A stretch of 64,000 nt of DNA, from IMG/VR virus record IMGVR_UViG_3300033073_001635, positions 49,341 to 113,340 of that record; one strand, written 5' to 3'. This document shows, piece by piece, positions 9,301 to 27,500 of this stretch. Each line of letters opens with the position of its first letter. Within the stretch, counting starts at the first letter, position 1. The notes under the pieces were generated by a model that was not told the DNA's origin, did not search any database, and saw only the letters and a list, made by a program, of their open reading frames with translations. This DNA comes from a virus (Duplodnaviria; Caudoviricetes). Made by a program: the position numbers and the translations under genes.

Positions 9301-12300
9301 CTAAAGCCATTGTTGTTATAACTGGCATTGTTGAAACGAATAAAACTGTACCCAAAGCACCAAGCACAGCACTGCCAAATATAGAGTTATCTATAATTCT
9401 AGTAAGGCTTGCTTGATTTACTGTTTTCAATAACTTAGCTGTAAAACTTTTTGGATTATGATTTAAAAACAAATCTTTATTAGCAATATTTGGAGTTTGT
9501 TGTTTTAACTTCACATCCTCAACATCATCTTCGTAACTTTCTAAAGATAGACCAGTAATACTATAATATAAATTATTAAAATATAATGGCGTTACATTTA
9601 TTCCATAAAAATTAGAATTTATTCTTTGTAACTCTTTATTGATTTCAGTTTCGCTATCTAAATATACATATGGTTCTATTAACAAAACACTAGCTAGTAA
9701 ATGAAAATCACAAATCATTGAAAGTAATTTTTTTACTTTCAATTCTTCTTTTGCATTTGAAGTTTCTCTTTTAGTAAAAGTTGAAGCAGTTAATGGATCT
9801 AATATATAAATTTTATATTCTAAATCATATTCTGTTCTTTTAGATTCAACAACAGCATCTATTTTATTTTCTTTAAAATAACGTCTTAATACCTCCTCTG
9901 TAGCGGGGTCTCTTTCTTTATTTGTAATTTTATATTTTTCTACGAAGTCATTGTACTTTTCTGATTTTGATAAATCATCAATCGCTTCAACATCATAAAC
10001 ATAAACAGTTGATTCATTTGTTACATTAGAGCTCATTAATTTTTGCTTTATAGAATTTTCTAAATCAACAAATCTTTTTTCTTCATAATTTGTTCCAAAA
10101 AAAGAATCAACTGAATCTCTATTAAAAAGCTCATCTAGTTGTTTTAAAAATTTATCTTGTCTCAAGCTTTCATCATATAAATTGGCTTCTTTTGAAAAAT
10201 TAATTTTAGTATTTTGAATAAAATCTGAATCAACATCATTATCTAATTCGTCTACACCATTCTCATTTTCAACAGGATTTAAAGTAGTGTTAGTATCTGA
10301 TCCAATATTGATTTTATTAAATAAATTTTTAAATTGAGGATGTATTCCAGGATCAGATCCTCCGCCTAATAAAGTTATACTCTCAATAATGTTATTATCT
10401 AAGTAGTCTTTATTTAAATAATAATTTAAAAAATCAAAAGTGTGACCGGTATCTAAATTAGGATTATTTATAATTTCATATATTGTATTCTGTCCCTCAC
10501 TAGGATACTTATCTTTAAAAATATCAACTTTATTTGAACCAAAATTAATTCCATACTTACCATTTTTATCAGCAGACCAAAAATAAGAATTTTGATATTC
10601 AGGTGAATAATTCTCATCAGTTTTAAAAGAATTTATTTTTAAATTTCTTAAAGCAAAATATAATTCTTTTTCTTCTTCATTTAAATTAGAAAACTTTTTT
10701 TTATCAAACTCTTTTAATGCAGCTACTGTAGTATCGTTTTGGTCAGCATATTCTGTTAGTTTTGAATCATAACTTGATTGATCCAACATATTAGATCTTA
10801 AATCAATATGTACAAAACCGGTTTCAGATTTTTGACCACCCATTACTGTAGCGTATTCAAATTCTAAAGCAGGAGTGCTTCCTGGAAATCTAAAAGAATT
10901 TCTTTTTAAAATATCATTACCATATACTCCAATTCCAATTTTACTCTTATTATTTTCAGCAATTTGTTTAAGTCTACGAAAGATATGAATTACATTAAAA
11001 TTTGGCACTACAATATCTACTGCAGATCCAAAATAATGTTGAGAAAAAGTAGTTCTTGTATCTTCTTCTTGAGTTGTAAACCCACTAGTTATTTGAACAC
11101 CTTTAAATAATTCTTTAAACTGCTGCAAATAATCAACTAATGGATCTAGATATTCAGTTGCTAATTTATATAAATTAGTATTTACAACTTTTGAAATTCG
11201 TTTTTGACTAAGTAATGTTTTTAATTCTTCTTTTTTGTTAACATAACTTTTAAAAAAATCCCAAGATTTAAAATATTTACTTTGCCATTCAAAAACATTG
11301 TCATCAGTAAATTCTTGCACTATACCTTGTTTTAAATCAAAATTTCTAGAACTATAATTAGAATTATCACAATTCATTAAAGCATAATTAACAACATCGT
11401 TATATAAATTTTCGTTCTTTGCTGTTTTGTTAGTAGTTAATTCTTTTAATCTTTCTGAATCATATACATTGGTTTCACTTAAACGCATAGTATATGCAGA
11501 AGCTCCAGGATTAGATTCTAAAGTTCTATATTCAGTACTTTCAATACTGATTGGTTTCTTTACATTTATAAAGTAACTTTCCTTATCGTCTATGTTTTCT
11601 TTAATTAGATATTCTTCTTTAAAAGAACCAAATAGTCTTGTAATAAAAGAATCAACTAAGATGCCAGTACCATCTGGTACAAATTTATATTCTCTAGCAG
11701 TTCTAAGTGTTGTAGTATTTATTTCCTCTAAACGTTTTATTGCATTTGGAAGATCACTTGCAGAATCTTCCAAACCATTTGCATGCATGTTATTAGAAGC
11801 AATTAAATTTAATTGATAATTTGGCTCCATACTACTTAAAAATTGTGTAGTAGGATATGCTTGTCCTAATATTGGAATATTTGCTGTTAAAGAATTGATT
11901 CCACCAGAAACTGAAACTAAAACATTATCTTTTGTTTTAAAATCAGGTCCATCTTCAATAGTTAAAGGGAGTACTTTTGTCTTAGTAAATATATTACTTA
12001 CATAGTTTTTTTCCAACCATGGTTGATATGGCGATTCATTTGTTTCAGATCCATTTAAAAACGAATTCATTGTTTTGAATGTTTTTAAATCATCTTCTGT
12101 TAAATATTTTAGTGGCCATGCTTCTTCAACAACAGGCGTTGGTGTCTGAATTTCAGGTTTTGGTTCTGGTTTCGGTGGTTCAGGTGGAATTTCAGCGACA
12201 GGAGCTGGTTCTACTACTGGTGGAGGTACTGGTTCAGGTATTGGTTGAGGTGGAGGCGCAGGCAGTTCAGGAGTAGCATTTGCAGGTACAATCGCTTGAG

Positions 12301-13711
12301 GTTTTACTTCTTCTTTTTTTGTATAAGGTCTTAGTTGCAGATAATACCTTAAGGTATTATCTGCAAATTTATAACCAAATTTATCAAAATAAAGCCTAAT
12401 AAAAGGGGCTATTATTTTAAAGACTTCTTCCTCTTTTACTAATTTGTCTAAACCTTTTCCATAAATAGCAAATCCTTCTGGGGTACCTGAACTAAAACGT
12501 AAATTTATTTCATTTTTTACATTATCATAATGTACTAAAATGGAACTGTTAATAGTTACTTTATTAAAATTAAGAAATTGGAATTGCATGTTTTCATCTA
12601 TATTACCTTGTTCTAATTTTCTTAATTTTTCCAAATTAGTTGTAAGTCTTTCTTTAGTATCTGTTGAACTAGGATTTTCAATTAAAAATTTTTCAATAAA
12701 TTTAATAGATTCAGGATTTTTCTTTAAAGAAATAGAAGGTAGATAAACTTCATTGCCAGAATCGTAAAACTCAGAAACTTGAGCATCGTTAAAATTTTCT
12801 GCAAGAAAAGTATAAAAGGAATTCTCGTTAGCTATTTCTAAATTTTTTCTTGATTTTAAAGTACGTAAAGCATCATTTATTTTTTCTCTTACTTCTTCAG
12901 ATACAGATTCTCCTTTAAAACTTTCTACTTGATTTCCCATATCAATAAAAAAATCCATTTTCTCTTTAAATGGAGTATTATTTGGTTTTTTTATTTGACT
13001 ATAGAATTCTTTTATAAAAAAGAATTCAGTTTTAGAATATTTATAAAATATATCATATGTTTTCTCTGACATTACATAAAAATGATCGTTAATTATTTCG
13101 TAATACTGTCCCATAGGCGCAGTAAATTCATTTTTTCCAGGCTCTACTGCGCCTGGTCTGTCTCCTGGTCTTTTTTCTGCTAGCCAACGAAAATGACTTC
13201 TACCGTCAGTGAAAAAGAATATAAAACAAAAATTTTCTTTAATATACTTTTTATATTCTTCTGAATTGTTAAATCCTAAAGAATTAATTAATTCTTTAGT
13301 TGTATTACTATAAAAACGAGAATAAGTATCATCTAATAAATATAGGGTTAAAGGCTTATCTACTTTTTTTAAATTAATCGAAATTGGAGAATTAGAAATA
13401 TTATCAAAAAACCCACCATGTAGAATTTGAAATCCCTCTACACAAGGTGGACAGCCTGTACTACCTTCTGTAAGAAAAATTACTTTTTTTGTAGCTTTAC
13501 TATATCTTTTTAATGCGGTTGCAAATGCAGTAGCTTTATTTTTTAAAGCTTGTCTGACTTTTGGTACATTGTAATCATCTGTAGAATCCCCAATACCAAA
13601 ATACATTACTTCAGCATATTCGTCAGAAATCCCTAATCTCTCAATTGACATGTTTTGTGCAGCTGCATATTCTTTTGCAGTCATTAATCCTTTGATACCT
13701 AATTCATTCAT
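3308..13711 (-). CDS. Giant baseplate hub protein (gp27/gpD-like) with M15 peptidase domain and hydrophobic insertions
   Basis: Hub-like segments LRPGVSCQLRAGYS..LLSGKIADV and GEIIILGNPEINPYD..VEAVTHIFS..GFITEI; M15 Zn motifs SQHYFGSAVD (H892) and GFVHIDLR (H968); position upstream of spike/wedge genes. Confidence 0.7.
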   Translation of the reverse strand: MNELGIKGLMTAKEYAAAQNMSIERLGISDEYAEVMYFGIGDSTDDYNVPKVRQALKNKATAFATALKRYSKATKKVIFLTEGSTGCPPCVEGFQILHGGFFDNISNSPISINLKKVDKPLTLYLLDDTYSRFYSNTTKELINSLGFNNSEEYKKYIKENFCFIFFFTDGRSHFRWLAEKRPGDRPGAVEPGKNEFTAPMGQYYEIINDHFYVMSEKTYDIFYKYSKTEFFFIKEFYSQIKKPNNTPFKEKMDFFIDMGNQVESFKGESVSEEVREKINDALRTLKSRKNLEIANENSFYTFLAENFNDAQVSEFYDSGNEVYLPSISLKKNPESIKFIEKFLIENPSSTDTKERLTTNLEKLRKLEQGNIDENMQFQFLNFNKVTINSSILVHYDNVKNEINLRFSSGTPEGFAIYGKGLDKLVKEEEVFKIIAPFIRLYFDKFGYKFADNTLRYYLQLRPYTKKEEVKPQAIVPANATPELPAPPPQPIPEPVPPPVVEPAPVAEIPPEPPKPEPKPEIQTPTPVVEEAWPLKYLTEDDLKTFKTMNSFLNGSETNESPYQPWLEKNYVSNIFTKTKVLPLTIEDGPDFKTKDNVLVSVSGGINSLTANIPILGQAYPTTQFLSSMEPNYQLNLIASNNMHANGLEDSASDLPNAIKRLEEINTTTLRTAREYKFVPDGTGILVDSFITRLFGSFKEEYLIKENIDDKESYFINVKKPISIESTEYRTLESNPGASAYTMRLSETNVYDSERLKELTTNKTAKNENLYNDVVNYALMNCDNSNYSSRNFDLKQGIVQEFTDDNVFEWQSKYFKSWDFFKSYVNKKEELKTLLSQKRISKVVNTNLYKLATEYLDPLVDYLQQFKELFKGVQITSGFTTQEEDTRTTFSQHYFGSAVDIVVPNFNVIHIFRRLKQIAENNKSKIGIGVYGNDILKRNSFRFPGSTPALEFEYATVMGGQKSETGFVHIDLRSNMLDQSSYDSKLTEYADQNDTTVAALKEFDKKKFSNLNEEEKELYFALRNLKINSFKTDENYSPEYQNSYFWSADKNGKYGINFGSNKVDIFKDKYPSEGQNTIYEIINNPNLDTGHTFDFLNYYLNKDYLDNNIIESITLLGGGSDPGIHPQFKNLFNKINIGSDTNTTLNPVENENGVDELDNDVDSDFIQNTKINFSKEANLYDESLRQDKFLKQLDELFNRDSVDSFFGTNYEEKRFVDLENSIKQKLMSSNVTNESTVYVYDVEAIDDLSKSEKYNDFVEKYKITNKERDPATEEVLRRYFKENKIDAVVESKRTEYDLEYKIYILDPLTASTFTKRETSNAKEELKVKKLLSMICDFHLLASVLLIEPYVYLDSETEINKELQRINSNFYGINVTPLYFNNLYYSITGLSLESYEDDVEDVKLKQQTPNIANKDLFLNHNPKSFTAKLLKTVNQASLTRIIDNSIFGSAVLGALGTVLFVSTMPVITTMALVLATLAVLPVPLLAGLKNESIKNKRVFYGEDYGNIGNWINIVVLKQIILDQSGINKVSFDKNSGLSILSQIYNQIDYEESLSFGLNDFLERINNGEEVWDFSKDIVKQYLINNPIILKYYKTSIFFKEMNQGLSFSLSNIINQSYFEEGEIKEKNGLVNNDVIQVKFAEDWLKYILGFPFLKGTPFFKENHDIYFDAENKEVSFDYFSSKTEEANEIFSHTDNLGLITEEDYKKRKNELQDKKKKYEDDLALANENLTNLKNQIKQMKNDFIKNVKGGPLYNIKTENFNKTLEPLNTQVETYIINIEDIKKNLEQAKSDYNKIDSSLTIDEIFKQAKESYKNTELEIAYPSGEIISGKFSNTDWPTLYSQLSFISNDLPKEPKFEENKKNVIKTFKEKLTLTDNYIAISINEKDSMHELYNKIPYLKEEFLNNFDDYLNKTNESSFSISESFQFEDKIESLFDKQDYNEKDYDFSKENEDLKYLNLKDLFFNIPSLLKKEIVEEYKTHNDKTIAFLKLLLEEVIKELLSSELFKANLNISENENTSDLFDFGGDRNNYPDIDLPMDPAEINSNVNLNPGFFYYESDFNDKLLSDIDARANNILKKSLKFMNDLEKGFVTEDGKNITKGNASDNYIKDILIDTQDSSSSSYIIKGGSGDSFRELILNPNASVKITFERDSNVNLTANDIAFIDIKNLIENSESAQKLTTLNNKLKEIEDKTNAIDVAFGSRTGFLNEPLELLNFYKKYNEKSDSLFFGNSDTDNAIAGKLGIFDDADLSNKKQDISEVMKQSGRKLFEKQFKMQKAYPTFRLFLIEEDAIESDTYFVFDDFYSFSAVKDFTVYKSKKLAADTAIIKLQNISGVLDGTKLGVIRDVDYEMATNRIKEVEAEKKAEQSNTQVIESLVLRPGVSCQLRAGYSSNPKELTILLSGKIADVSWSSSGDMCEVVIQSFGVELEVRKYGSSDADSGVSELEFHTTHKLLGWCMFRNELKHFGRFKKERLFQTGINNSESKEIAVSKESYLGTPPGYSDSMFQFFQSNWGWFVLADVLFSVGTVFIGGAKGLVKEAVVEGAEAVAKSAAKEAAEAGAKEAAEATVTEATKAAAKSTAKGSFISKTAQYLASSMNIVDNVLTGTKWYSKGLLAPFRWAFGSGWNPAKNTLIVNSVLKDIAAGTATLADDAIEASVRATLEATAAGGRGAILTGVAKSFGFNIARSGTNLERLLTVSPKALLSGIQKATQQGILNQKVANALVKEMSTNFNLLYAGRSALEAVSLGVVKSAKFSLLALGIGASIDIISSVVSASTNYLVDLLNNTLNPYSEKIALSPQDDAIYAPHPDRYIKPINEVMSVRSKDLIKKTGIAFLNAFSMYSTEATAEKLQKDIILGRTLAMDKRMYASIGENIFKLKNHTIWEVFHEMSLRHPGWVYGARQYGNGLEYRMFFGLPNQRYFGTPLNNRTIYRMNDIIRAISNNDLASMRRLVGETANLVDDYLDITNVGQSLKAQGENINAPKIKIYKSILLNEWNRITEKRFIPFRNYHLVSSKFNLVANNIKGVNNDVINEIAVLFVNNSSTENPEYTQRIIRSHENIPEDQIHAKAVKYDNCKGFNSALRYGTSELLNAAKEMYAGEIIILGNPEINPYDVILLDDQYTEMYGPIEVEAVTHIFSMDTGFITEIKPNALVTANEGLTYPIINSVVMYDVGRELAEKSPFDFVEVVKKYRKNQDQSSKDQIKKRLKELVDKWFEKEVGAFEMFGLFPNTIQVGYSDLLKMKPEAQQKIKESIVEDLLKQIQTNNIILQAEILNPNASIDSLIDTSAITGLLSSAAAIALATTIKFRTTKLPIAFFSALALASANFNNVVANQLRSPDSLLANKLIPGDMLVSQVADGNLMQIFPLYKNNKPLIYAGYDKINTKRRIKNKFGNIFTDFSDAMETFNIMLKEYANKENIIYSEPNFVSEAIGTLSDAGQTLLPFKLPKGTLRGYMNSYTPDQLINKSLK

Positions 13712-13713
13712 TT

Positions 13714-14925
13714 TTAATTACCTTCTTCATTTGAAATTTTGATTAAAGCTTGAGCTATTTTCTTTTGATTTTCAAGAATTCTAATTTTTTTTTCTTTAGG
13801 ATCACTTATGACTTCTGTACCATTTAGAATTTCTAGTCTATAGTTTTTTAACACTTCACCTGGTAAATTCAAATAGTAATATTGATTATAATAGATTTTC
13901 ATATTTAAATCTTTTTCTAACATTTTTAAAATCAATTTTATTTTTATGTATTCAGGTAAATATGCAGAATGCAATCCTATTACTAAATTTTGAAAATTCT
14001 CCCCAACTAAACCAGATTCTAAGACTTTCATTTCTTCTTTATTAAAGATTGATTGATCAACGCAATTAATTCCAAAGTTCTCAGTCAAAGATTTAATTTG
14101 CAAATAATTGTAATATCTAACATATACGTTACTAAAATAAGGTTCTCTAACACTCATTGAAAAATTATATTTTTTTAAATTTCTATACATTGAAGTAAAA
14201 TATGTTTCTGATTCTTTTTTAGTAGAATTAGAAGTAGAATTTGTTTCTGTAGTTGCTTCTTGATTTCGTGTTTGTGTTGTTAAAGTATATCTTATTTGTG
14301 CTAATTTTTTAATATCAAAAACAGGGAAAACAAAACTAGAAAAATAAGTATCGCTTATGGGTATTAAAAGTGATTCTAATTCTTTTCGAAACATCAAATT
14401 AGGAGAATAAGGATAATAATTAAAATATTTTAAATCCAATTCCGCTTCAAAAGAAGAAACACCAGCTTGATAAGAACTAATTCTAAATCCGACTACAGTG
14501 CAAAACAAATTAGTAGGATTATTTTTATCAAATGCTAAATTAGGATCAATTTCTAAAATAGAATTTTTAATATAATCATTCTTTACCCATACAAAAGGAT
14601 TATTCCTTATCTGAATAATCAATCTATGTAACATTAAAATCATCTCTCTATTAAATAATAATTTAATTTGAATACCAACACTACTTCTACCAGAAACAAC
14701 TTTAGTGGTTGTCTTTGATCTTAATGTTTTATAACCCCAATTAAAATTATCTTTTTGAATTTGAATAGAAATTGGTGGAATAGGAAATAAAATATCATTT
14801 AAAATAAATCCTGTATTTTCTCCTAATTCTCGTAAATGATTACTTACTTCTGAAAAAACCATTTCTCCAGTATATTCAAAATAATCTCTATTAATAATTT
14901 CTTTATTTAAGTCTAAAACAGCCAA
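13714..14925 (-). CDS. Putative tail-tube initiator/baseplate protein (TTG start)
   Basis: FPIPPISIQI..YKTLRSKTT pattern resembling tube-initiator folds; synteny between the tape-measure region and the hub. Confidence 0.4.
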   Translation of the reverse strand: MAVLDLNKEIINRDYFEYTGEMVFSEVSNHLRELGENTGFILNDILFPIPPISIQIQKDNFNWGYKTLRSKTTTKVVSGRSSVGIQIKLLFNREMILMLHRLIIQIRNNPFVWVKNDYIKNSILEIDPNLAFDKNNPTNLFCTVVGFRISSYQAGVSSFEAELDLKYFNYYPYSPNLMFRKELESLLIPISDTYFSSFVFPVFDIKKLAQIRYTLTTQTRNQEATTETNSTSNSTKKESETYFTSMYRNLKKYNFSMSVREPYFSNVYVRYYNYLQIKSLTENFGINCVDQSIFNKEEMKVLESGLVGENFQNLVIGLHSAYLPEYIKIKLILKMLEKDLNMKIYYNQYYYLNLPGEVLKNYRLEILNGTEVISDPKEKKIRILENQKKIAQALIKISNEEGN

Positions 14926-14927: not shown

Positions 14928-17900
14928 TTATTCTCCCATAAGTTGATCAAGATAACCACCTGTTAATGGTCTACGATTATCATTGATCATGATACTTGAA
15001 CTACCTCCATTTTGCAAAGCAATCTTATTCATATAATTCGCTTCTTCAATATTTCTAACGTTTCCTTTAATTAAATATGATTGATTTCTTGCAAGCATTG
15101 TACTCCCAGGACTTTGAACTCTACCAACCATATCTTTATAAAAAGGTCTTTGCATAGAGTCTGGAGACATTGATACATCTGAATTGTAATTTTGAACTTG
15201 AGCTAATTCTCTATTTTTAATTTTCTCATTTACTCTTGTATCAGTAAAAATTTCTTCAGGTCGAAGTTCTTCAGTATCATAAGAAGAAGATAATAAATAT
15301 GATGCGCCAACTACTGCTGCAGTAGCAGCAGTCATCTTCATGTTTGATAAATTAGCAATATTATCACCAATCATATTTAAAACATTTGATTGTCTATTAC
15401 CAAGTAGGTTTTCAAATAAAGCTTGTTGTTCAGGAGTACTTAAACCTTGAGATCCAACCGCAGCTTCAAGCACATCAAAATTTCTAACCAACTTTAAATA
15501 ATCTTCATTTGTAAAACGTTTATTCTTACCTGCGCTCATTAAAGCGCCTAGCATATTGTCAGAAGCGTAAGGACTTAAATTATTTGCTTTTACAGTTTTA
15601 ATAATATTTCTGAGCCCTTCAAAAATATCATCAAGATTAAATGTAATTCTCTCTTTATTTAAACCTTCTGTATAAGCTGAAGCTAATGGTTCAGGCATAT
15701 TTTCTACACTAACATTTTTTACAATTAAATCATTTAAGAAATCGGTGTCTTTAAAAACAGTTCCTCTCATAAAGTTTTCAAAATCAGTAGTATCCCCAGT
15801 TTCAAAAGCTGTGTTCAAAGTTTTAGTAAATAGCTCGCCGATATTAGTAGCTAAATCAAGAGATTTAGATTTAATAACAACAGATTCTTGAGAAGCAGAA
15901 ATCAATAATTGTGCTGCTAAATCTGTTTTTCTAAAATCATTTAAATTCATATTTCCTTTAGCTAAATTATAAGCTGCACCAACTGCTACTTTTTTAACTG
16001 CAACGTCAACAGAACCAGTACCAGCTTTAAGAATTCTTTCTTTTGAAGATTCTGATTTTAATAAATCTTGATATGTAATATTTGCAACATCCATTCTTTC
16101 TGCAACTTTTGACATTGCTTTTTTAGCAATCTCCATATTTACAACCATCATGGCACCGGTTTTTTGCATCTCTCTTATATTTCTTTGTATCTGACCCTTG
16201 AATGCATTACTGGTTTTTTCATTATTTAAAATGATTTGATAGATATCACCGTCAAAGTCACCCACTGCAGCTCTAGATATATCTGTACGTACTTTTATAT
16301 CGAAAGTATTAGATGGATCTTTTGTATTTTCAAATTTAAAAGTAGTTTCAAATTCAGGATACACTGCTCTACCAGCACCCAAACCAGTAGCTCTTGTATA
16401 ATTCTGATCATATAGATCTACAGCTTCATTAATAATATCATCTAAACTATGATATTGTTTTTCTTCAGTTAAATCTATATTTGCTATTTTATTATCTATC
16501 TCTGATATTTTAACATTTTCTTCTTCTATAAAACCTTGTAATTTTTCAATTTTTTCATTTTGCTCTAAAGTTGTTAAATCCATATTTCTCGGTGAACGAA
16601 GAATTGGTTTATAAAGTAATCTTTGAGAATCACCTTGTTCAAAATCGTCTAATTTTTGCAAAAGATTGTCTTCATTATTTTTTACTTTTTCCAATAATTG
16701 TTCTTGTTTTGTACGTACATCATCATGCTCTACATAATATGCTTCATCTTCTTCATGATAAAAATCATCATAAATAAGTTCATCCATTTCTGTAAAATAA
16801 TTATGCGCACGAATAAAGTTCTTTAATAAATCTTTATTTACTTTTTTTACAGTTATTCTCTCTGGTTCATCAGTTGGTATATGTGTACCTGTTTCAGGAT
16901 CGTAATTAGTTTTATAAACAATTTCTGATTCACCAGTTTCTTGATTATATTTAGTTAAATTAATTTCTTCTTCTTCAGTAAAAGCTTCTAATCCTAAAAT
17001 TATATCCGATTTACCTAGAAAAGTTTCTGGTTGTCTAGAAGTAATTGGCATCCCCATATCATCAAGTGCATTAACGTATGTAGGTTTACCTTCTGAATCA
17101 AGTATCACATTTCCTTCAGTATCTATTGCTAGATTTTTAAGTTCTCCCTTTTTTATTATATTACCATCAGTATCATACTCATCAAAATCAGAAGCTAATT
17201 CTTCATAATAGAAATTTGCACTAGTTTTTCGACTTAGACCATTATTTTCTAATTCATCAATTGATGAATCAATATTAAATTTTTCTCGTCTAGCTTCTTT
17301 TGCTTTTTCTTGTAAAGTAGCTAGTTTCTCTTCTTCTTCTTTAATTAACTGAGCATTTTTATTAATGCGCCCTACTTTATATTTTGTTCTTTCTTCTGCT
17401 TCGTATTTAGATATATCTTCATCTAATTCTTCTAAAGTGCTGTATTGTTTGCTTTCGTCATGATAAGTAGGTTTTGTTTTATCAGGTTTTCCATCGGGTC
17501 CTAATTCATAACCTTTGATTATTTTTACTTTAGAAAGTGCTTTCTTTTGTTTTTCACCTAAAGCCTCTTCTACTTTATTCTCTAAATGATTTTTATAAAA
17601 CTCTTTTTGATCATCATCTAACTCTTCAAAAGGTTTCATTAATCGAGTAGCAGATATTTTACCAAAAGTTGTTTGATCTGGATTCTGTTTTAAATTATCT
17701 TGAAAAGCTTTAATTAAAGCTTTGTCTTCGTCTGAATCTGTAATATTTCTAACAAATTTACCTTCATCATCAACAACATGATAATCATATTCATCACTAA
17801 AAAACGATTGAAGAAAATCTTTACGAGCTTGATAAATTTCTTGTTCTTCCCGTATGAGCATTTTAGGAATTATAGATTGTGCATAATATAACATTGAATT

Positions 17901-20900
17901 TACAAAGTTATTTGCACCTTTTGTTTTTCCTTGAATCATTGATTCTACAAATTGTTTTTTTAAAGTAAATTCTTGAATTTTTGCTTCAGAATTACTTGTA
18001 TTAGTTATTTGATCTTGGTATTTACCTTCTTTTAGATTCTCTAATAGATCAAAAAGCATTGAAGTTGCATGAAAATGATTTGTGGTTGGAACATCTGGAT
18101 CTTCCATTAATGTTTTTACAAAAGAAAACAAACTTTCAATCGCTTTCTTCTTTTCTTGTTTATGTAATTTTGAGAATGGTATCAATTTTCCATTCTCATC
18201 ATAAGTCATTGCTGTAAAATTATTTGATACATCACGCCTAAGATAATCCGAAGTAAACAATAATTCAGCAAAATCATCTTTGACTTCATGTAAAAATCTA
18301 GGCAATTCTAATAAATCTAATTGATCAGTATCAACTCCTAAAGTTCTATTTTGTTGTAAACCAAAATCTTGCAATGCAAAAATATCACTAATAGCTTGGC
18401 TATTTATTTCAGTAGGACTTATTGGACGCTTTAAATTTAAATTTTCTTTTAATGATTCTCGATACAGTTTAGAATCATTTAAAAATCTATTTAATCCTTT
18501 TTGTATGACATCTTCAGCTAGTGCAGGAGAATATCCAAAATGAGCATATGCTTCTTGTAATGTTTTGATTTCTTTATTAATACTACTAGCTTTTTCATTC
18601 ATTTTTTTATAATTAAAAATTTTAAAAAATGCTTTGTAAATAGGATTATCATTTAAATCTGAATGTTCGGTAGGATCACTACTTAATTGTTGAATATAAT
18701 TTTCTAAATAAGTATATACTGTTTTGCTATTTACACTTACTTGTTTATTTTTGTCAGAAATATATTTTACAATAGTTTTATTAGGATCATTAGGGTCTGC
18801 GTAATCAATTAAATTTCCATTCTCATCAATATTTTCAATATTATATTTTATATAATTAAACCCAGAATAAGTTCTTTCCTTGCCGTTTCTAGTTACAGTT
18901 TTTGATTCCCTATCAAAAGTTATGATTTTTCTAATTTTGTTACCTTCAGAGTCTTTTAGAAAATCAGATCCATCATGTTCATAAAAAACTTTTTGAGCAT
19001 CATCATCTAAAGAATCTATAAATGGTATAAATCTTTTAGCAACTCTAGCACGACCAAGTCCTTTGTTTTCAAGCTGTGTTCTTTCTTCAAAACTTAAATC
19101 GGAATTATTCATCTCATATAAGAAATCAAATAAATTTAATCTTGCTTTTTTATTCTTAAAAAAAGCATTAGCTTCATCTGATTGCATGGTATCTTTCATG
19201 CTTTCAAATACTTTATTAAACTCTTCTATTTTTGTTCTATTGTAAAATTCATGACTTCCAAAAGTTTCAAGAATCTCTTTATTTGTAATAGGAAAATCAG
19301 GATGTATGATTGTTAAATTTAAAAATTTCTCAGTTTGGGTTTTATAAACAGGTTTACCAAACTTATCAAGCATAGGCTTTCCTTTATTTTTTCCACTTTG
19401 ATGTAATACTTCGATTTGACTTAAAATTTCCTCTTCATGTCCACCAAAAGAATTAATAATTACTTTTTGAAAATCACGTTGTTTATTTAGTTTCTCTAAA
19501 TTACTTTTACTACGTTTACTTTGCGTCAAAAGTAATTTCAATCTATGAGATTGAAGATCAATTTCTCTATAATTTTTAATTATAGCTTCTTCATAAGTAT
19601 TGTCATATCCATATCCTCTATAATATCTATCTAAAGCATCAGTTCTTTTTATTTGATCTCCAACATTTTCAAAAGAAGTCCCTGTACTATCTAGTATCAT
19701 ATTAGGATTCAAACTGTTATAAGCATATCTAGAATCCTTACCTAATAACCTGCCTGCTTGAAGTCTTCGATTCCTATCATTTTTGATATCTTTTATATTA
19801 GAAGATTTTTGTTTATAATAATTTAAAAACCCTTTTCCTACTCTATCTACTGATTCTTCAACATTAGTATCTTTATTTATTCTAGTATAAGAAAAATTAC
19901 CTTTAAACATTTCACTTCTTTGTTGTCGTAAAGTTTGAATGAAATCTTGTTTTTGTTGTATATTCCCAGCTAAACGTTCTTGCTTTTGTTGCTTTTGATT
20001 TGAAAAGAATCTTGCTTTTGCTATTCTTTCTTGAAGATTTTCATAACTTGAAATTAGATTAGAATTTAAAGTATTTTCAATACCTTTTACATTTCTTTGA
20101 TATGCAGTTTGTAAATTAAAAATTCTTTCATTTAAATTAGAAACGTTACTTTCTATTTTATTTCTTTTATTAGTTAAATATTCCATTGTAGTTTTTTGAA
20201 AATCAAACGATAAATCTTTAAAAATACCAGTTTTGTTTAATTGATTTAAAACATTTAAAGTTTTAAAATTTAAAAAAGAAAAGTTATTTCCAGAATCGGC
20301 TGCTGATTGTATTGATTGATCAATGTAATTAATAACATCTTCGCCGCCATTCTGAATTATCTTATCTCTAAATGCACTGTTATTACCCATAAATTCAGAT
20401 AAAGATGATAAGAATATTTGCCCTTTAGTATTATAATTCAACACATCAGAATAATGAGATTCAGGTAGATTCTCCCCAATATATTTATACATATCAATAT
20501 TTAAAGCAATGTGAGACATACCTAGTTGTGGATTACGAAAATTTATACCCGAAATACCTTGAGGTTTAAAACTTCCATTTTCTAAACTATTTACTATTCT
20601 CATAGTTCCATCTGAAATTTGCAAAACATCCTCTTCCATACCAAATAAAAACTTTTTATATAGTTCTCGTTTTTCTGTTGGATCTTGTGCATTAAACGTT
20701 TTACTAGCATACATAAATGCTTGCGTATCCAAAAACATATTATAACCATTGGATTCAATAAAAGCTGCATTCATTTTTTGAAGAATTTTAGCATTATCTA
20801 AATCATCGCTTACAAATCTAGTAATTTGATCTTTTTCAGGATCACCTAAACGAACACCCTTACCTTCTAACGTTGCAGAACCAGACATTCTACCAGCTAA

Positions 20901-23900
20901 AATCTGTCGTTGCATACCCCCTAACATGTGTTGTAATTGTTTTACATGATACATTGCTTGATTTACTTTATTTGTTTGATCAACTTCTTCAGTTGAAGTA
21001 GATGCTTCTCTTAAAAAAGCAAAAATATCATTTACTTTTCTATATAATTCAGATTCAATTTTTAAATCTTTTTGATTACTTTTAATTTCAACACCAGAAA
21101 CAACATCTAAAACATTGCTTAAAGGCACTACAATTTCAGTTTTAGTTTCGCCAATTTGTTTTAAAAAGCTTTGATATGCAGCAGTATTTATATTTTCATT
21201 ACCTTCAACACCTCTAAGAAACATTTGTTGAATATCCATAACAAAGCCCATGGCTTGAGGATTTAATTCTTGTTGTTCTTTTAAAAAATTACTTAAAGCG
21301 GTAGCTGAATCAATATCAACATTTGCTCTTAAAAACTTTTTAGTAAATTCTTCATCGGCTCTAAACAAATAACCTTGACCTACAAAATCATCAATTGAAT
21401 GTTTCAAAGCACCTGCATCCATACTGGGATGCAATGACTGCCCCATTAATAGCAATGGTGTCATTGCTTGAGCTTTTTCAGCAACACCAGATTGTTTTGA
21501 AAATAATTCAGCCATATATTCTGCTGCTTCATCTTCATTCATTTGAAACATACCCATTAAATTACCCATTACAAAGTTAGCAAAACGAGGTTCTACTCTA
21601 GCCATTCTATCTTTGTTAATAGTAGATTGTGTACCAGCAAATGTAGACATTGCACCAATAAAAAATCCTCTTTCAGCAGTTTCAAAAACTACTTTTTGTT
21701 GCTCAGCAGTTAATCTTGTATTAGCTAAAAGACCTTTTAATTGATCTTTAAAAGCAACGGCTTTTTTACCAGGTTCAGTTGCTGGTTCTTTTAAATTATG
21801 GTACGCAGGAATTAACAAGTTTCCTAAAACTTCAGGAGTTACTTGTTGAGCTGTTGCGCCTGATGCAGTAGGTAATTCAGCATTATCAGCAATTAAATTA
21901 GAAAAAGTTTCAATGATATTTTCTGCTACAATCTTTTGATATTTAGGTGCATGCTGTTTTACCTTTGTATCCATTTCAGCAGCTTCAATTTTTCCTTGCA
22001 TATTAAAAACATTAGATTCAATAAAATCATCAGCATAACCTAACATTTTTAAAGAACCATAAAGTAAAGAAGACAAAAATTGTGGGCCCTTTGTAACAAC
22101 GTCCATACCTGCTAACATTGTACTTTCAATTTTACCACCAAATGTTTTCATATAAGTATTTTCAAAAAAACGACTAGCTTCTTGCATTGCAGCTTCTCTA
22201 TTTATAAATTTTCCAGTAACTGGATCTTTTTTATATAAAGCCTGCGCTAAAACATTTTTCATACCACCTTCATCAAGTATTTGTTCTTCACCAAAGAAAA
22301 CACCCTTAACAGCTTCTGAAAATATCTTACCTTCATGACTACCATAAACTTCACCAGCAATACTAAACATACCAGTTCTTTCAGTATTAACATTGGTATT
22401 CATTTTTAACTTCAAACCCATCATGCCTTTTTGTTTTTTTATCAAAGTAGGCATGTTATCTTTAAAACCTAAAACTAGATTTCCATCTTTATCTCCATAA
22501 TTTTTAAAAAAAGTTTCTAATTCACTTCCAAACAAATTAACTTCTTCACCAGCTAATATCTTTTGAAAAACATCAGATTCATAAATACTTAGATTAGTCA
22601 TCCCCTTAGTATATTGAAAAGATTTTTGTAAAGGTTCTGATACTAAATGCATACCACCTCTATATTGCATTGCATCTGCCAAACCTAATCTTTGACCTTT
22701 TTTAGCATTACTATTGAAATCTATAATTACACCAGTATTTGCACCTACTAAATCTAAATTTTGAAATTCTTTACCAACTACTAATAAATCAGCACCTTTA
22801 GTTGCAGATGTTTTAATAGAACCAGTTCTACCAAAACTTAAAGATTGCATTCCTCTTTGCATATCTTCAAAGGTTTCAAATTTAGTATTTGCAGGAAAAT
22901 AACCAAGCATAGCTTCTGGTTTAGCAAATAACTGAGCAATACGTGCAGAACCAGGTAATAAAGATTGATCTTTAATACCATGAGTTCTAGCAATATTATA
23001 AGGTATCACTGCAGGATTAGAAACGTTTTGACGTCCAAGAATTGCATTTGGATCAAGTATTACAGCTTGTTGTTCAAAAGAAGTGCTCTTTAATTCCTTT
23101 CTAATTGTACCTGCTTGACCTTGTGCAGGACCAAAAATACCAATATTTAAAGATACTAATTCATTTAAATCTACAGGAAATTGACCACCTGTTTTACCTC
23201 TATTAAAAAAATAAGCAGTATTTGACATTATTTGAATGCCGTGCTTTTGTTGAATACCAGCATAACCAAAATTCATTTGACCATGCGTAGGGTAATATTG
23301 AGTTAAACCAGAAAGAACTTCCATAAAAGAATTTCTTTCAGCTTGATTCATATAATGAATGTCTTCTGGAGAATAAGTTTTTAATAAATTAATTGCAAAA
23401 TCTTCAAAAGAAGATTTAGGCATTTTTTTTGCAAAAATATTTCTAGCAATTTTTTGTTTTTCAGCAAGATTCGCACCCTTACTAACTTCAGCAAAATCTG
23501 CTGCATCAAAATAATGATTATGTGCAACCTTTGCATTTCCGTAATCACTAGATAATCTTACATATCTTCCATGTGTACCTTCAGCAGCCATTAAAGGAAT
23601 TATTAATGGTTGTTTTGAAGATCTATTATGAGTAGAACTTATTCTAGCATAAACACCATATGCATCTTCATTAGCTTCTTTTATAATATCAAAAGAAACT
23701 TTAAAATTAGGATTATTATTTCCCAATCTCAAATGATCACTAATTATATTAAATCTATTTAGAACAGTGTTCTTTACTTCGTTACTTTTACCTTTAAAAA
23801 TACTCCATAGCTGATCATCTTGTAAAGATGATGCAGTTAAATTTTGTTTATGATAAATTGTATTCACATTCTTTTGCGCACTAAAAGTTTCGAATGGATT

Positions 23901-24596
23901 AGTGATAGTTACATTTCCACCATTATTAGTTCTTCGAGAGCTAGTAGATATTAAATGTGCAACACTAGAATTTTTTTGATGTAAACTAACATATTTTTCT
24001 TCGAGCGTTTTATTACTTCTAATTGAATCTAAAAAACCTGCTATATCTGCTTTGTCAGCATCACTCATTCTAGAAGAATCTTCAATTGCACCTCGAACCT
24101 TTGTTATTAATTTAGCTTTAGCTTCTTCATCTAAAGCTAAATCAGGATCATTAACCATATCTAATATAACTGATAAATGACTAATTCTTTGATTTTCTTT
24201 TGCAGCTAAAATTTCATCTAATTTTGATCGAGCATCTACAGTAGCCATTTCATCAAATAAATTAAGTGTAACTTCTTTTGCTTTCTCTTTTGCTAAAGCA
24301 TTTCTAGCTTGATAATCACTAATTGATCTATCTCTAATAGCTTTACCAATTTTTCTAGTAGGTAATGCAGTGTCTTCCTTTATCCCACTAGAATTCATAA
24401 AATTAGTTAAATTTCTAACACCAGGAATAGGGTTCTTCATATTAGGATTATCATTTGCAAATCCTAAGTAACCTGCACCTAAAACAAAAGAAGCACCACC
24501 AATAGTTTTTAAAACATCAAAACTATTTCTTGCAAAAGCTCTACGTTCTTCTGTGTCTTTTTTATAAACATTATAAATTAAACTTGGATTTGTCAT
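14928..24596 (-). CDS. Putative single-chain two-barrel (DPBB) RNA polymerase, probably virion-associated
   Basis: Catalytic GDFDGD (D2780-D2784, nt 16245-16259), FRNPQL RxP motif (R1354), beta-like lysine pair GKIFSEAVKG (K757/K764); located in the tail operon. Confidence 0.7.
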   Translation of the reverse strand: MTNPSLIYNVYKKDTEERRAFARNSFDVLKTIGGASFVLGAGYLGFANDNPNMKNPIPGVRNLTNFMNSSGIKEDTALPTRKIGKAIRDRSISDYQARNALAKEKAKEVTLNLFDEMATVDARSKLDEILAAKENQRISHLSVILDMVNDPDLALDEEAKAKLITKVRGAIEDSSRMSDADKADIAGFLDSIRSNKTLEEKYVSLHQKNSSVAHLISTSSRRTNNGGNVTITNPFETFSAQKNVNTIYHKQNLTASSLQDDQLWSIFKGKSNEVKNTVLNRFNIISDHLRLGNNNPNFKVSFDIIKEANEDAYGVYARISSTHNRSSKQPLIIPLMAAEGTHGRYVRLSSDYGNAKVAHNHYFDAADFAEVSKGANLAEKQKIARNIFAKKMPKSSFEDFAINLLKTYSPEDIHYMNQAERNSFMEVLSGLTQYYPTHGQMNFGYAGIQQKHGIQIMSNTAYFFNRGKTGGQFPVDLNELVSLNIGIFGPAQGQAGTIRKELKSTSFEQQAVILDPNAILGRQNVSNPAVIPYNIARTHGIKDQSLLPGSARIAQLFAKPEAMLGYFPANTKFETFEDMQRGMQSLSFGRTGSIKTSATKGADLLVVGKEFQNLDLVGANTGVIIDFNSNAKKGQRLGLADAMQYRGGMHLVSEPLQKSFQYTKGMTNLSIYESDVFQKILAGEEVNLFGSELETFFKNYGDKDGNLVLGFKDNMPTLIKKQKGMMGLKLKMNTNVNTERTGMFSIAGEVYGSHEGKIFSEAVKGVFFGEEQILDEGGMKNVLAQALYKKDPVTGKFINREAAMQEASRFFENTYMKTFGGKIESTMLAGMDVVTKGPQFLSSLLYGSLKMLGYADDFIESNVFNMQGKIEAAEMDTKVKQHAPKYQKIVAENIIETFSNLIADNAELPTASGATAQQVTPEVLGNLLIPAYHNLKEPATEPGKKAVAFKDQLKGLLANTRLTAEQQKVVFETAERGFFIGAMSTFAGTQSTINKDRMARVEPRFANFVMGNLMGMFQMNEDEAAEYMAELFSKQSGVAEKAQAMTPLLLMGQSLHPSMDAGALKHSIDDFVGQGYLFRADEEFTKKFLRANVDIDSATALSNFLKEQQELNPQAMGFVMDIQQMFLRGVEGNENINTAAYQSFLKQIGETKTEIVVPLSNVLDVVSGVEIKSNQKDLKIESELYRKVNDIFAFLREASTSTEEVDQTNKVNQAMYHVKQLQHMLGGMQRQILAGRMSGSATLEGKGVRLGDPEKDQITRFVSDDLDNAKILQKMNAAFIESNGYNMFLDTQAFMYASKTFNAQDPTEKRELYKKFLFGMEEDVLQISDGTMRIVNSLENGSFKPQGISGINFRNPQLGMSHIALNIDMYKYIGENLPESHYSDVLNYNTKGQIFLSSLSEFMGNNSAFRDKIIQNGGEDVINYIDQSIQSAADSGNNFSFLNFKTLNVLNQLNKTGIFKDLSFDFQKTTMEYLTNKRNKIESNVSNLNERIFNLQTAYQRNVKGIENTLNSNLISSYENLQERIAKARFFSNQKQQKQERLAGNIQQKQDFIQTLRQQRSEMFKGNFSYTRINKDTNVEESVDRVGKGFLNYYKQKSSNIKDIKNDRNRRLQAGRLLGKDSRYAYNSLNPNMILDSTGTSFENVGDQIKRTDALDRYYRGYGYDNTYEEAIIKNYREIDLQSHRLKLLLTQSKRSKSNLEKLNKQRDFQKVIINSFGGHEEEILSQIEVLHQSGKNKGKPMLDKFGKPVYKTQTEKFLNLTIIHPDFPITNKEILETFGSHEFYNRTKIEEFNKVFESMKDTMQSDEANAFFKNKKARLNLFDFLYEMNNSDLSFEERTQLENKGLGRARVAKRFIPFIDSLDDDAQKVFYEHDGSDFLKDSEGNKIRKIITFDRESKTVTRNGKERTYSGFNYIKYNIENIDENGNLIDYADPNDPNKTIVKYISDKNKQVSVNSKTVYTYLENYIQQLSSDPTEHSDLNDNPIYKAFFKIFNYKKMNEKASSINKEIKTLQEAYAHFGYSPALAEDVIQKGLNRFLNDSKLYRESLKENLNLKRPISPTEINSQAISDIFALQDFGLQQNRTLGVDTDQLDLLELPRFLHEVKDDFAELLFTSDYLRRDVSNNFTAMTYDENGKLIPFSKLHKQEKKKAIESLFSFVKTLMEDPDVPTTNHFHATSMLFDLLENLKEGKYQDQITNTSNSEAKIQEFTLKKQFVESMIQGKTKGANNFVNSMLYYAQSIIPKMLIREEQEIYQARKDFLQSFFSDEYDYHVVDDEGKFVRNITDSDEDKALIKAFQDNLKQNPDQTTFGKISATRLMKPFEELDDDQKEFYKNHLENKVEEALGEKQKKALSKVKIIKGYELGPDGKPDKTKPTYHDESKQYSTLEELDEDISKYEAEERTKYKVGRINKNAQLIKEEEEKLATLQEKAKEARREKFNIDSSIDELENNGLSRKTSANFYYEELASDFDEYDTDGNIIKKGELKNLAIDTEGNVILDSEGKPTYVNALDDMGMPITSRQPETFLGKSDIILGLEAFTEEEEINLTKYNQETGESEIVYKTNYDPETGTHIPTDEPERITVKKVNKDLLKNFIRAHNYFTEMDELIYDDFYHEEDEAYYVEHDDVRTKQEQLLEKVKNNEDNLLQKLDDFEQGDSQRLLYKPILRSPRNMDLTTLEQNEKIEKLQGFIEEENVKISEIDNKIANIDLTEEKQYHSLDDIINEAVDLYDQNYTRATGLGAGRAVYPEFETTFKFENTKDPSNTFDIKVRTDISRAAVGDFDGDIYQIILNNEKTSNAFKGQIQRNIREMQKTGAMMVVNMEIAKKAMSKVAERMDVANITYQDLLKSESSKERILKAGTGSVDVAVKKVAVGAAYNLAKGNMNLNDFRKTDLAAQLLISASQESVVIKSKSLDLATNIGELFTKTLNTAFETGDTTDFENFMRGTVFKDTDFLNDLIVKNVSVENMPEPLASAYTEGLNKERITFNLDDIFEGLRNIIKTVKANNLSPYASDNMLGALMSAGKNKRFTNEDYLKLVRNFDVLEAAVGSQGLSTPEQQALFENLLGNRQSNVLNMIGDNIANLSNMKMTAATAAVVGASYLLSSSYDTEELRPEEIFTDTRVNEKIKNRELAQVQNYNSDVSMSPDSMQRPFYKDMVGRVQSPGSTMLARNQSYLIKGNVRNIEEANYMNKIALQNGGSSSIMINDNRRPLTGGYLDQLMGE

Positions 24597-24599: not shown

Positions 24600-27500
24600 T
24601 CAGTATCCACTTCTATAAGAATTAATGAATGCATTTATTTCATTTTGTCTATCATCGTTATACATCAATTGTGTTCTATTTTGAAAATCACTTGTTGTAT
24701 TTACAGTAAAATTACTATTTAATCTTTCATATGGGTTTGCATATCTTAACAAACTATCAACCATACCTCTATTTGAAAAAGACTCTTCATACATAAATTC
24801 ATGTGCTTTATTTAAAGCATGATGTCTTTTTACACGTCTAGCTTGAGAATCCCAAAGATCATAATCTCTCATTTCGTCCCCTAAAGAAGCAACATAATTT
24901 ACTTTTATATCATTTATATCTACTTCTTTATTCCAACCAACCCAATCAGGTTCAGGCATAGGATATTCTCCCATATCTAAGTTAGAATATTGTTCTTGTA
25001 GATATCGCTCATCATATCTTGGTTTTTCTTCAATCAAAGAAGTAGGATCTATACCTGCATCAAGATTACTCCATAATCCTTGATACAAGTGCTGTTGATC
25101 TTCTGGAATCATTTCCAAAATTCTATCTCGCTCAGATCCTTGTGCATTTGCAAATGCATCAAAAAATTTCTTTTCTTCACTAGGCAAAGACATATAGATA
25201 CTTAAAGGATCACCATAGGGATTTACACCAGCTCTAGTTTTGGCTGCTTGTGCTAACATTTGTTTCTTCTCATACATGCTGCCAGCCTGTTGAGAAAGAT
25301 TCATGAATTTGTAAAAATTCAATTGATCATATTGTTTAGACAGTGCTTCTCTATTTTCAACATATCCTGGCTTACCTTCCCAGCCTAAAGCATTCAATCC
25401 TGAATAAAATGCGGGTCTAACCCAATCTCTAATTGGTTTATCCCAAAAAGCTAATTGAGTACCATACAACCTTTCATACTCATATTGATCAATTGCATCT
25501 CTCTCTCCACCAAGTAATTTTTGTGCAGGTCTAAAACCAAAAGGAACAACAGATTCAACAGGTTGTGCTATCGTTCTAATACCTTCTTTTAATTGATAAT
25601 AACCTGCTTGAGTTACATCTGATAAAACAGGTATTTTTATTTGATTCTCGTAACCTTTAAATTCTTGCATGCCTAATACTTTAGCATGAGATTCCGCAAC
25701 CATATCCATTAAATTGTTTTCAAATTCACTAGTGATTCCAGCAGCTCTTCTTTCATAAAGTTGATTTCTTAATTTAACAACTTCTCTAGAAGTAGGGTCT
25801 ACATCTGCTAATATTTTATATTTAAATACATCAGGATAATCTTCTGGTTCAAATCCTTCTAGTACTGGAAATACAGCTTCAAAACCTTCACCAGGTAATC
25901 TAGCATAGGCATTTTGTATTTTTGTATATGGGTCGCCTCTTCTAAATTTATCAGGCATCCATGATGGCATAGTATTACTGATTGGATTATATTGTTCTAT
26001 TTCTTTTTTTGGTCTTGGATACAAACGTCTAAGTGCTTCAGACATAAACATCATACCCCCAAGATCTTTGTCCCAAAAAGCCGCAATTGAAGAATCTATT
26101 TGATTAGCACTAGCTAATACAGGATAATCTGTTCCATATATTTCTCTTCCGGTAACTGCTTTCTGAACCATATTTTTAACCCAACCAGTTAAACCTTCAA
26201 GTTCTCTAAATTGATATTGAATTTTACCAGGAAGTAATTTTCCTTCATAAGGTGAAATTGGTGGACCATTTGGTGTAGTACCACCAATTTCTCTTGTAGT
26301 ACCAACTTCAGGAGGATAATAATATTCTAATTCATTATTATCATTTACACGCATATATTCATTAGCATGCATTATCTTTGCTGGTTTTATTAAACGACCA
26401 ATAGTATGAGCCAGAATGGGTCCAAGAATAGGAACATTTTCAAAAGCAACACCAGTAATAGGATAAGGTCTATCATAAAAATGTTTTTCTTCTAAATGAT
26501 AAGTAAAGTTTTTTAAGAACCATTTAGATATAGGATTGTATTGTTCGTCTTCTTCTCCCCAAATAGATTTTTCTTCTGCTCTAGTCATTAATAAATGATA
26601 TGCATGTGGTCTTGAATATAAGACATCAGAACCTTCATAAGGCAAGCCACCACCTTCCCAGAATCTACCCTTTCTAACATCAACAAATTTATTACCACTA
26701 TATATCTCTTTTAATTCCCCTGGATTTTCCATTGTACCTAAAAGACTACCTGTCATTACTGAATGTAATAAGAAACCCCCAGCAAAAACAGTACCTAGTC
26801 TTCTAAAAAATGGAGTGTAATCAATTGATCTTGCAAGAGTATCAAATTCATCACCTTGCATAGTTGCACCTTGCATTGCATGATAAAACTCAGTAGCAAA
26901 TATCTCCATTCTTTCCATAATAGGTGCAAAAAGACTTTTACTGTTTAAATATGAAGCTTTAATACTTTCAACTCTATTCAATAAAGAGTAGTTCAAAAAA
27001 TTCTTAGTATTTTGTCTATCGTATACTCTTGTTTTTATTAAATTATGGATTTCATTATCAAAATCTAGTCTTCTGGATCTTGCTGTAATATCATCTTCGT
27101 TATTAAAAAATTCTTCAGTAATTATTTTAAAAAAATTATTTAAAAGGTTACTTTTACCAGTAGTTTCCATATTAACTGAAGAATATTCACCTACTCTACT
27201 ATTTAAAATATCAAAGTATCTTTTAAATACTGGAGATGTTCTTAATAAATTTTGTTTATTTGCTTTTAATGTTTCTAGTTCTTTATTTAAAGTTTCAATT
27301 TTACTTGCATCAGTAGGATTTACTTTAGAAATTACTTCATTTAAATTTTTAATTTGAGAATTTAAATTTTTAAAATTAGATTGTAAATCACTTAAACCTT
27401 CTATTTTATCTTGGTTTTGAAAAAATGTACCAAATATAGGATTGTACTTTTCAAATATTTCTGATTCAGTTTCGTAAAATAATTCTTTCAAAAGATTAAA

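Follow-up and report, generated by a model that had tools for sequence, protein, structure and literature searches.

The window analysed here, a stretch of 64,000 nucleotides (bases 49341-113340 of the IMG/VR record IMGVR_UViG_3300033073_001635, which is 113,340 bp long with 29% guanine plus cytosine and an estimated completeness of 69%), was found to contain on its minus strand the gene P0001 (14928-24596), an open reading frame (ORF) uninterrupted over 3222 codons and thus an intact gene for a protein of 3222 amino acids (aa). The protein was found to occupy the tape-measure slot in an operon for a contractile tail and is very probably a single-chain, very diverged homologue of the two-barrel RNA polymerases (RNAPs) with a preserved active site. 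By analogy with known phage systems, P0001 would rather likely be an early transcriptase delivered with the virion. Its catalytic barrel was found to be interrupted by an insertion of 1356 aa, and this extreme insertion, which is specific to the window and its close relatives, is the new element here. The phage is an uncultured myovirus of ~160 kb and a distant relative of Bacillus phage 0305phi8-36.

The N-terminal part of P0001 was found to contain GANTGVIIDF (aa 618-627) and LGLADAMQYRGG (aa 637-648) together with a K-x6-K pair (aa 757-764), followed by the presence of an RxP motif (aa 1354-1356) and of GDFDGD (aa 2779-2784). The sequence-only reading had claimed these three motifs in one chain, with the beta-like part before the beta'-like part, and both the motifs and their order K-x6-K, RxP, DxDxD along P0001 were borne out. 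In the K-x-F-x4-K motif the first K was conserved in 65 of 65 rows of alignment A2, the F in 63 of 65 and the second K in 63 of 65, and the motif was invariant in alignments A5 and A6. The R of RxP was conserved in 85 of 87 rows and the P in 86 of 86 (71 of 72 and 72 of 72, respectively, in A2). The three aspartates D2780, D2782 and D2784 were unchanged in every aligned homologue (75 of 75 in A2; 99 rows in A1), which answers the earlier question of whether DFDGD is conserved; the family variants were DFDGD, DFDAD, DWDGD, DQDGD and others, with positions 1, 3 and 5 constant. The residue E2904 was invariant and K2909 and K2911 were nearly invariant (E214, K219 and K221 of the C-part alignment), and D516, R518 and P520 of the C-terminal tail motif (numbered by the same alignment) were also nearly invariant. 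The stretch aa 940-1375 was found to hold a GRMSGS motif (GK..GS in the family) together with the initial strands of the catalytic barrel. A second DxDxD (DSDED) was present at aa 2287 and was unconserved, so that a bare DxDxD is weak evidence and conservation decides; further RxP matches at aa 2521, 2667 and 3208 are not the conserved RxP. Judged by the alignments, K-x6-K, RxP and DxDxD are family signatures and not chance strings.

The family was collected by an exhaustive HMMER search with aa 2200-3222 as the query over 1.84 billion cluster representatives, and 117 representative proteins (clusters at 50% identity) were found; a word-indexed search gave five relatives, all close. In nearly all of the 117, a module of ~490 aa (aa 2732-3222 of P0001) was found to end a protein of 1650-3280 aa, and the homologues of 1650-1830 aa without the large insert are called base forms here. 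The aligned homologues were 17-30% identical to P0001 and the motifs were fully or almost fully kept across about 100 of them at 20-30% identity. One family copy per genome was found in this record and in two complete relatives of ~160 kb (G003 and G004). Neither Pfam nor PHROGs has a model for the family, and P0001 and five family members gave no match to either collection. Searches of PDB sequences with phmmer and the family profile gave chance helical matches only. No match was obtained by tblastn in 50,697 phage records with the P0001 C-part or with P0040 as the query, and no relative turned up among 185,579 prokaryote genomes when sequence patterns of one base-form subgroup were used. No published description of the family was found in the literature.

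The fold was predicted for P0049, a base-form fragment of 1029 aa that begins ~460 aa before RxP and extends to the C-terminus. With a family alignment of 51 sequences, the model reached a mean predicted local distance difference test (pLDDT) of 78.4 and a predicted template modelling score of 0.74. Foldseek of this model against the PDB gave nothing at E <= 0.001, with the AR9, phiKZ and Thermus RNAP chains among weak rows only. When the model was compared by VIA-align with 48,161 representative chains, two-barrel RNAPs dominated the list, with QDE-1 at 9.3 (root-mean-square deviation 4.2, 260 residues aligned), followed by ZmRDR2 (9.0), Pol II Rpb1 (7.5), Vaccinia RNAP (7.3), Pol I (7.3), archaeal A' (7.1), P74-26 gp62 (7.0), Pol IV (7.0), ASFV RNAP (6.6), the phiKZ non-virion RNAP (nvRNAP; 6.5), phi14:2 gp66 (6.5, 364 residues aligned), the AR9 nvRNAP (6.5), M. 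tuberculosis beta' (6.3) and P23-45 gp96 (5.9). The comparison with P23-45 gp96 and phi14:2 gp66 made in the sequence-only reading was apt.

In the P0049 model, RxP closes a strand at residues 452-458, followed by the next strand at 467-474, a helical excursion at ~476-552, three strands at 565-586, the DxDxD at 596-600 and a last strand at 601-605. The placing of the DxDxD loop after three strands and before one strand was found both in this model and in the model of the P0001 C-terminal half, and the P0049 model shows a beta'-type double-psi beta-barrel with beta'/Rpb1-like surroundings. The fragment was assigned to the beta'-like module because it superposes on beta'-type chains only. The two-barrel fold proposed earlier thus held for the beta'-type half, by the match to beta'/Rpb1 and QDE-1; since P0049 covers the beta'-like module, the presumed beta-like barrel has to be located upstream of it, where K757-x6-K764 marks the candidate region. 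The P0001 C-half itself was modelled at a pLDDT of 62 (75-94 in the core) with mostly helical-bundle matches. The look-alikes of aa 520-940 in the ESM Atlas were tape-measure families at ~0.8, which is a lead only, and hhalign of the family profile against E. coli rpoB was not significant and uninformative.

A complex prediction of the two separated parts of the barrel (aa 940-1400 and aa 2691-3222) gave 0.32 (runs of 0.50, 0.05 and 0.32; best control 0.00), which is weak support. In calibration, 58 of 80 solved complexes and 2 of 110 mismatched pairs attained this mark, and at 0.60 or under it was attained by only 7 of the 80 solved complexes and by both mismatches; these counts hold roughly for the present runs, which had their own alignments, at least 28% agreeing contacts and a partner pLDDT of at least 44. 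The prediction was not used as support.

The insertion in P0001 was located by a profile built from base forms only, which was found to match aa 39-1375 at E 7.5e-91 over profile positions 30-1132 and aa 2732-3222 at E 2.4e-73 over profile positions 1193-1669. About 60 profile positions are missing at the insertion and 1356 residues replace them. In the short homologues, the stretch that aligns to P0001 aa 520-1373 lies directly upstream of the C-terminal module, and in P0015 the two aligned blocks adjoin (472-1255 and 1271-1812). The spacing from RxP to DxDxD was 110-150 aa in 62 representatives and 210-1510 aa in 24 others, with 1426 aa in P0001; the DxDxD, RxP and K-x6-K motifs were kept in every member, with inserts of 210 to 1510 aa alike. 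The insertion was found to be Pro/Gly-poor and to contain 30-40% DEKR residues without internal repeats, and Pfam gave no domain in it. The identity between P0003 and P0001 was 90% in the N-part, 53% in the insertion and 92% in the C-part, which indicates a fast-evolving insertion. In the base form P0049 its place is taken by the helical excursion (aa ~479-553). Two-barrel polymerases commonly bear lineage-specific inserts at the corresponding site (Iyer et al., PMC7824862), so that the insertion, which replaces the excursion at that place, occupies a site known to be permissive. An intein or mobile element as the origin of the insertion was considered and rejected, as P0001 had no Pfam intein or endonuclease match; the continuous variation of length in the family and the charged, non-repetitive composition also speak against it. 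The sequence-only reading of P0001 made no mention of the insertion, the most unusual feature here.

The genes in the window were found to run, in the order of transcription, from terminase, portal and major capsid protein to the sheath, the tube paralogues, two small genes, the 1494-aa gene, P0001, the 403-aa gene and the 3467-aa gene. By BLASTP, the flanking genes match those of 0305phi8-36 and of Acinetobacter phage vB_AbaM_ME3 one to one, and P0001 was therefore assigned to the slot of 0305phi8-36 gp146, whose record reads 'hypothetical tape measure protein' and which is a virion protein by mass spectrometry. The 339-aa gene has its counterparts in the chaperonin gp144 of 0305phi8-36 and in gp33 of ME3 (BLASTP), and the 403-aa and 3467-aa genes match the hub gp147 of 0305phi8-36 and gp37 of ME3. 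The tail-operon setting proposed earlier was thereby confirmed, with the sheath, tube paralogues and chaperonin-like genes upstream and the hub and a peptidoglycan hydrolase downstream, whereas the placing of P0001 between the tape measure and the hub was wrong: P0001 itself occupies the tape-measure slot, and the upstream protein of 1494 aa is a gp145 homologue and no established tape measure.

The gene order was identical in 12 metagenomic loci, with base-form, intermediate and long-insert members of the family. By hhalign, the last 67 family columns (RPIN.G.TY ... IND.RRPIT..Y.DR..GE) aligned with the C-terminal end of gp146 (E 0.031). No Pfam tape-measure domain was found in P0001, and a TMP_3 match in P0015 at E 0.022 is a lead only. 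The terminase was found to have distant relatives in the terminases of Moorella phage MTATph1, 0305phi8-36, ME3, Bacillus phage vB_BceM_WH1 and phage Edson. The slot protein (1668-3222 aa) was found to lengthen with the hub protein (2786-3870 aa), with a Spearman coefficient of 0.75 (p 0.013) and a Pearson coefficient of 0.83 over ten loci (the window, L007, L008, L010, L012, L014-L016, L018 and L020), uncorrected for ancestry. This co-variation would fit a scaling of both proteins with tail length and is only suggestive. The coordinates of the features are given in Table 1.

Table 1. Features of P0001 and genes of the tail operon, by position in the window.
Feature	Position	Strand	Basis
Whole gene P0001, tape-measure-slot protein with a very probable single-chain two-barrel-type RNAP core	14928..24596	-	open frame and family-profile matches
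N-terminal hydrophobic Gly/Ala-rich segment, aa 35-47, ASFVLGAGYLGFA	24456..24494	-	sequence; presumed membrane/lumen role
Conserved N-part, aa 520-939, candidate beta-like module	21780..23039	-	homologue alignment
K757-I-F-S-E-A-V-K764, candidate basic-residue pair of the second barrel	22305..22328	-	family-invariant K-x-F-x4-K
N-half of the beta'-like module, aa 940-1375	20472..21779	-	profile match; homologous P0049 region modelled
R1354-N-P1356, conserved RxP(x)L of the catalytic barrel	20529..20537	-	homologue alignment
Insertion of 1356 aa, aa 1376-2731, between RxP and DxDxD inside the catalytic barrel	16404..20471	-	absent from base forms
C-half of the beta'-like module and C-terminal tail, aa 2732-3222	14931..16403	-	C-terminal module of 117 representatives
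G2779-D-F-D-G-D2784, candidate metal-binding triad	16245..16262	-	alignments
QESVVIKSKSL, aa 2903-2913, helices after the catalytic loop	15858..15890	-	C-part alignment
C-terminal hydrophobic segment, aa 3088-3104, MTAATAAVVGASYLLSS	15285..15335	-	sequence; conserved in the A4 and A9 consensus
C-terminal tail motif INDNRRPLTGGYLDQLMGE (family IND.RRPIT..Y.DR..GE)	14931..14987	-	alignment
Sheath, 852 aa	32781-35339	-	PHROG sheath match; 0305phi8-36 gp139 and ME3 gp29 by BLASTP
Three tube-family paralogues	30845-32764	-	BLASTP to 0305phi8-36 gp140, gp141, gp142 and ME3 gp30, gp31, gp32
Two small chaperonin-like genes	29087-30821	-	BLASTP, 0305phi8-36 and ME3
Upstream neighbour of 1494 aa, gp145 / ME3 gp35 homologue (virion structural protein)	24600..29084	-	tblastn and BLASTP
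403 aa and 3467 aa, baseplate-hub-type giant with cell-wall hydrolase	3308..14925	-	weak M15 match, phrog_20474

In the proposed mechanism, the polymerase core would be assembled from two separated stretches, aa ~520-1375 and aa 2732-~3020. The first would contain the K-x6-K of the presumed beta-like barrel followed by the first half of the beta'-like barrel up to RNP, and the second would contain the rest of the beta'-like barrel with DFDGD and the following helices, with the 1356 residues looped out between them. P0001 would be made late alongside the tail proteins and, like the tape measures, would be built into the tail lumen, where the conserved C-terminal tail and the hydrophobic segments at aa 35-47 and 3088-3104 may anchor it. 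The contraction of the sheath would expel the protein, which would fold or become active in the host and then transcribe the first phage genes without the host polymerase, as P23-45 gp96 does (PMC10770324). The variable insert would probably serve as length-setting or spacer material in the tail. More tentatively, and with real doubt on our side, the insert (0 to ~1500 aa in the family) could be a tail-length ruler placed inside the catalytic barrel, so that a tape measure and an ejection-activated RNAP are joined in one chain; stretched in the lumen, the ruler would hold the halves of the active site apart and keep the enzyme off, and after ejection the insert would fold back, the barrel would close and transcription would start.

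Other transcription genes of the phage were searched for in the record, which is incomplete and may lack the early region, and in G003 and G004, and no sigma-70 region 2 or canonical Rpb1 domain 2 was found in any of the three. A search for a T7-type RNAP found nothing and, being without a positive control, shows nothing. Among the k-mers of 16 intergenic regions, searched for a common promoter-like motif, only A/T-rich words emerged. Elsewhere the genome was found to contain a split DnaE, a DnaG-type primase-helicase and nucleases.

A two-barrel homologue carried in the virion might have a job other than early transcription, such as the priming of DNA synthesis, the copying of RNA or the making of an anti-defence RNA or nucleotide product, and we regard this as improbable. 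The copying of RNA would suit the best structural matches, QDE-1 and RDR2, which are RNA-dependent enzymes, whereas gp66, gp96 and gp62/gp64, which belong to the same structural clade as the P0001 family, are DNA-dependent transcriptases (PMC10770324), and the likeness to QDE-1 and RDR2 says fold, not function. The phage has a primase-helicase of its own, and as no sigma factor or other RNAP was detected, its early expression would rest wholly on the host if P0001 had another job. It is very unlikely that P0001 is made late and stays unpackaged, for late or sustained transcription, with its gene merely lying in the tail operon. Phage two-barrel RNAPs outside the virion do exist, and P23-45 gp64 and the phiKZ and AR9 nvRNAPs are among the fold matches, whereas the place of the gene between the gp145 homologue and the hub is constant in the 12 metagenomic loci, ME3 and WH1, the hydrophobic segments and the gp146-like C-terminal tail resemble features of tape measures, and the length of the slot protein co-varies with that of the hub. 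An enzyme first made with the tail proteins would also come too late unless it were carried to the next cell.

The protein might instead be a structural tape measure or ejection protein in which the polymerase fold is an inactive relic, with catalysis destroyed in this phage by the 1356-aa interruption. The insert does lie within the catalytic barrel, a complex between its two parts was only weakly supported by the prediction, and no DxDxD was found in gp146 of 0305phi8-36 or in the pieces of the MTATph1 slot gene; a non-enzyme can therefore fill the slot. The relic is nevertheless unlikely, as the residues of the catalytic site are invariant in the insert-bearing lineage too. Because the motifs are kept whatever the insert length and the flanks are 90-92% identical against 53% in the insert (P0003 vs P0001), purifying selection on the active site is indicated, and the insert replaces the base-form excursion at a position where inserts are tolerated (PMC7824862). 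The reading of P0001 as an active polymerase delivered with the virion is the preferred one.

The closest system in concept is gp96 of Thermus phage P23-45 (with homologues in P74-26, G20c and TSP4), a virion two-barrel RNAP fused to the tape measure that starts phage transcription (Chaban et al. 2024, PMC10770324). No sequence similarity between gp96 and P0001 was detectable by phmmer or by the family profile against PDB sequences. P23-45 is a siphovirus with a non-contractile tail, whereas the phage of P0001 is a 0305phi8-36-type myovirus. The polymerase of gp96 stands at the N-terminus, with the tape measure after it, whereas in P0001 the polymerase core extends along the chain and encloses the length-variable material within its catalytic barrel. 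P23-45 also has a paralogous non-virion RNAP, gp64, whereas a second copy was not found in the record, G003 or G004, and the P0001 family, unlike gp96, is spread over many lineages. The crAss-like virion RNAP gp66 of Cellulophaga phage phi14:2 (PDB 6VR4) was not significantly matched by the family profile (hhalign E 0.14); it is carried in the capsid of a podovirus and is not encoded in a tail operon, and nothing comparable to the nested insert is present in it. Neurospora QDE-1 and plant RDR2 are eukaryotic enzymes of unrelated context that use RNA templates and are about 10% identical. The 0305phi8-36 gp146 was found to share with P0001 the slot, the giant size (2537 aa) and a similar C-terminal stretch of ~70 residues, whereas it contains no DxDxD and no similarity was detectable beyond the C-terminus; hhalign of the family profile against 0305phi8-36 gp145 was not significant. 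For 0305phi8-36, the one enzyme listed by Iyer et al. (PMC7824862) is a separate YonO-like RNAP encoded at another locus.

Two cultured phages were found to contain a protein with the signature in the slot after the gp145 homologue. The gp36 of ME3 (1603 aa) contained GGDHDQD at residue 1217, 386 aa from the C-terminus, and the BFVD entry for ME3, A0A172Q021_2, matched the P0049 model by Foldseek at E 6.4e-5; this entry was assigned to gp36 from its length of 802 residues, half of 1603. The hhalign comparison of the family profile with ME3 gp36 was not significant. The gp095 of WH1 (2515 aa) was found to contain RYP, followed after 38 aa by the presence of ADHDGD, a spacing like that of canonical beta', and it gave a weak family-profile match (E 0.008) that ended exactly at RxP. 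Both proteins differ from P0001 in that their similarity is below tblastn detection and that they are without a large nested insert, and their annotations read no more than hypothetical or virion structural protein.

To our knowledge, virion-delivered two-barrel RNAPs are known in few groups, namely the jumbo phages of the phiKZ/AR9 type, the crAss-like podoviruses and Thermus phage P23-45. The large unannotated family described here would put an enzyme of the two-barrel type in the tape-measure slot of contractile-tailed phages. If the preferred reading is true, the delivery of a transcriptase through the tail lumen would be a widespread strategy and not a Thermus oddity, and it would explain how these phages of ~160 kb, in which no sigma factor or RNAP gene is recognisable, can begin an infection. 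The nested insert is a natural experiment on the tolerance of the double-psi barrel and also bears on the coupling of tail-length determination with enzyme activation. Bench tests of the idea are possible with the cultured phages ME3 and WH1.

Several side observations were made on the neighbouring genes. The C-terminal ~800 aa of the 1494-aa protein were found to be 31-40% identical to the counterparts in three distant base-form loci, whereas the polymerase-like C-part was 22-24% identical in those three loci and is so less conserved. The 1494-aa protein contained Gly-rich hydrophobic stretches and matched no known family, with none found via the ESM Atlas either, and its C-terminus (..YNDDRQNEINAFI..) is similar to the D-x-R tail motif found in the slot proteins. 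The gp145 homologue tends to be longer where the slot and hub proteins are longer (1464-1494 vs 1305-1358 aa). The hub giant was also found to be split in L007 (394 and ~3030 aa), whereas L008, L010 and L012 contained a single protein of 2786-2988 aa. The hub hydrolase differed by lineage, with a weak M15 match here and M23 in L008, and the L010 hub gave a sub-threshold match to a tail-lysozyme family (E 0.0036). The tube paralogues match phrog_9206, labelled 'major head protein', and this label was copied into the MTATph1 annotation; it looks wrong, because the paralogues match the tail tube gp140 of 0305phi8-36 and its paralogues. In MTATph1 (L024, 12513-19869), which is a relative in culture, the tape-measure-slot gene was apparently interrupted by a transposase gene.

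The DnaE was found in at least three separate ORFs at record bases 3892-7855 and 15879-17180, outside the window, of which the pieces contained PHP and the start of the NTPase, the end of the NTPase and the finger, and HHH and OB, respectively, with a weak intein-splicing match at the end of the second piece. Also outside the window, at the edge of the record (bases 283-1119), the C-terminal specificity domain of a Type ISP restriction enzyme was found (E 2e-41). Upstream of the terminase region, the minus strand of the window (55507-60357) encodes a protein of 1616 aa whose sole match was a weak endonuclease PHROG near its C-terminus.

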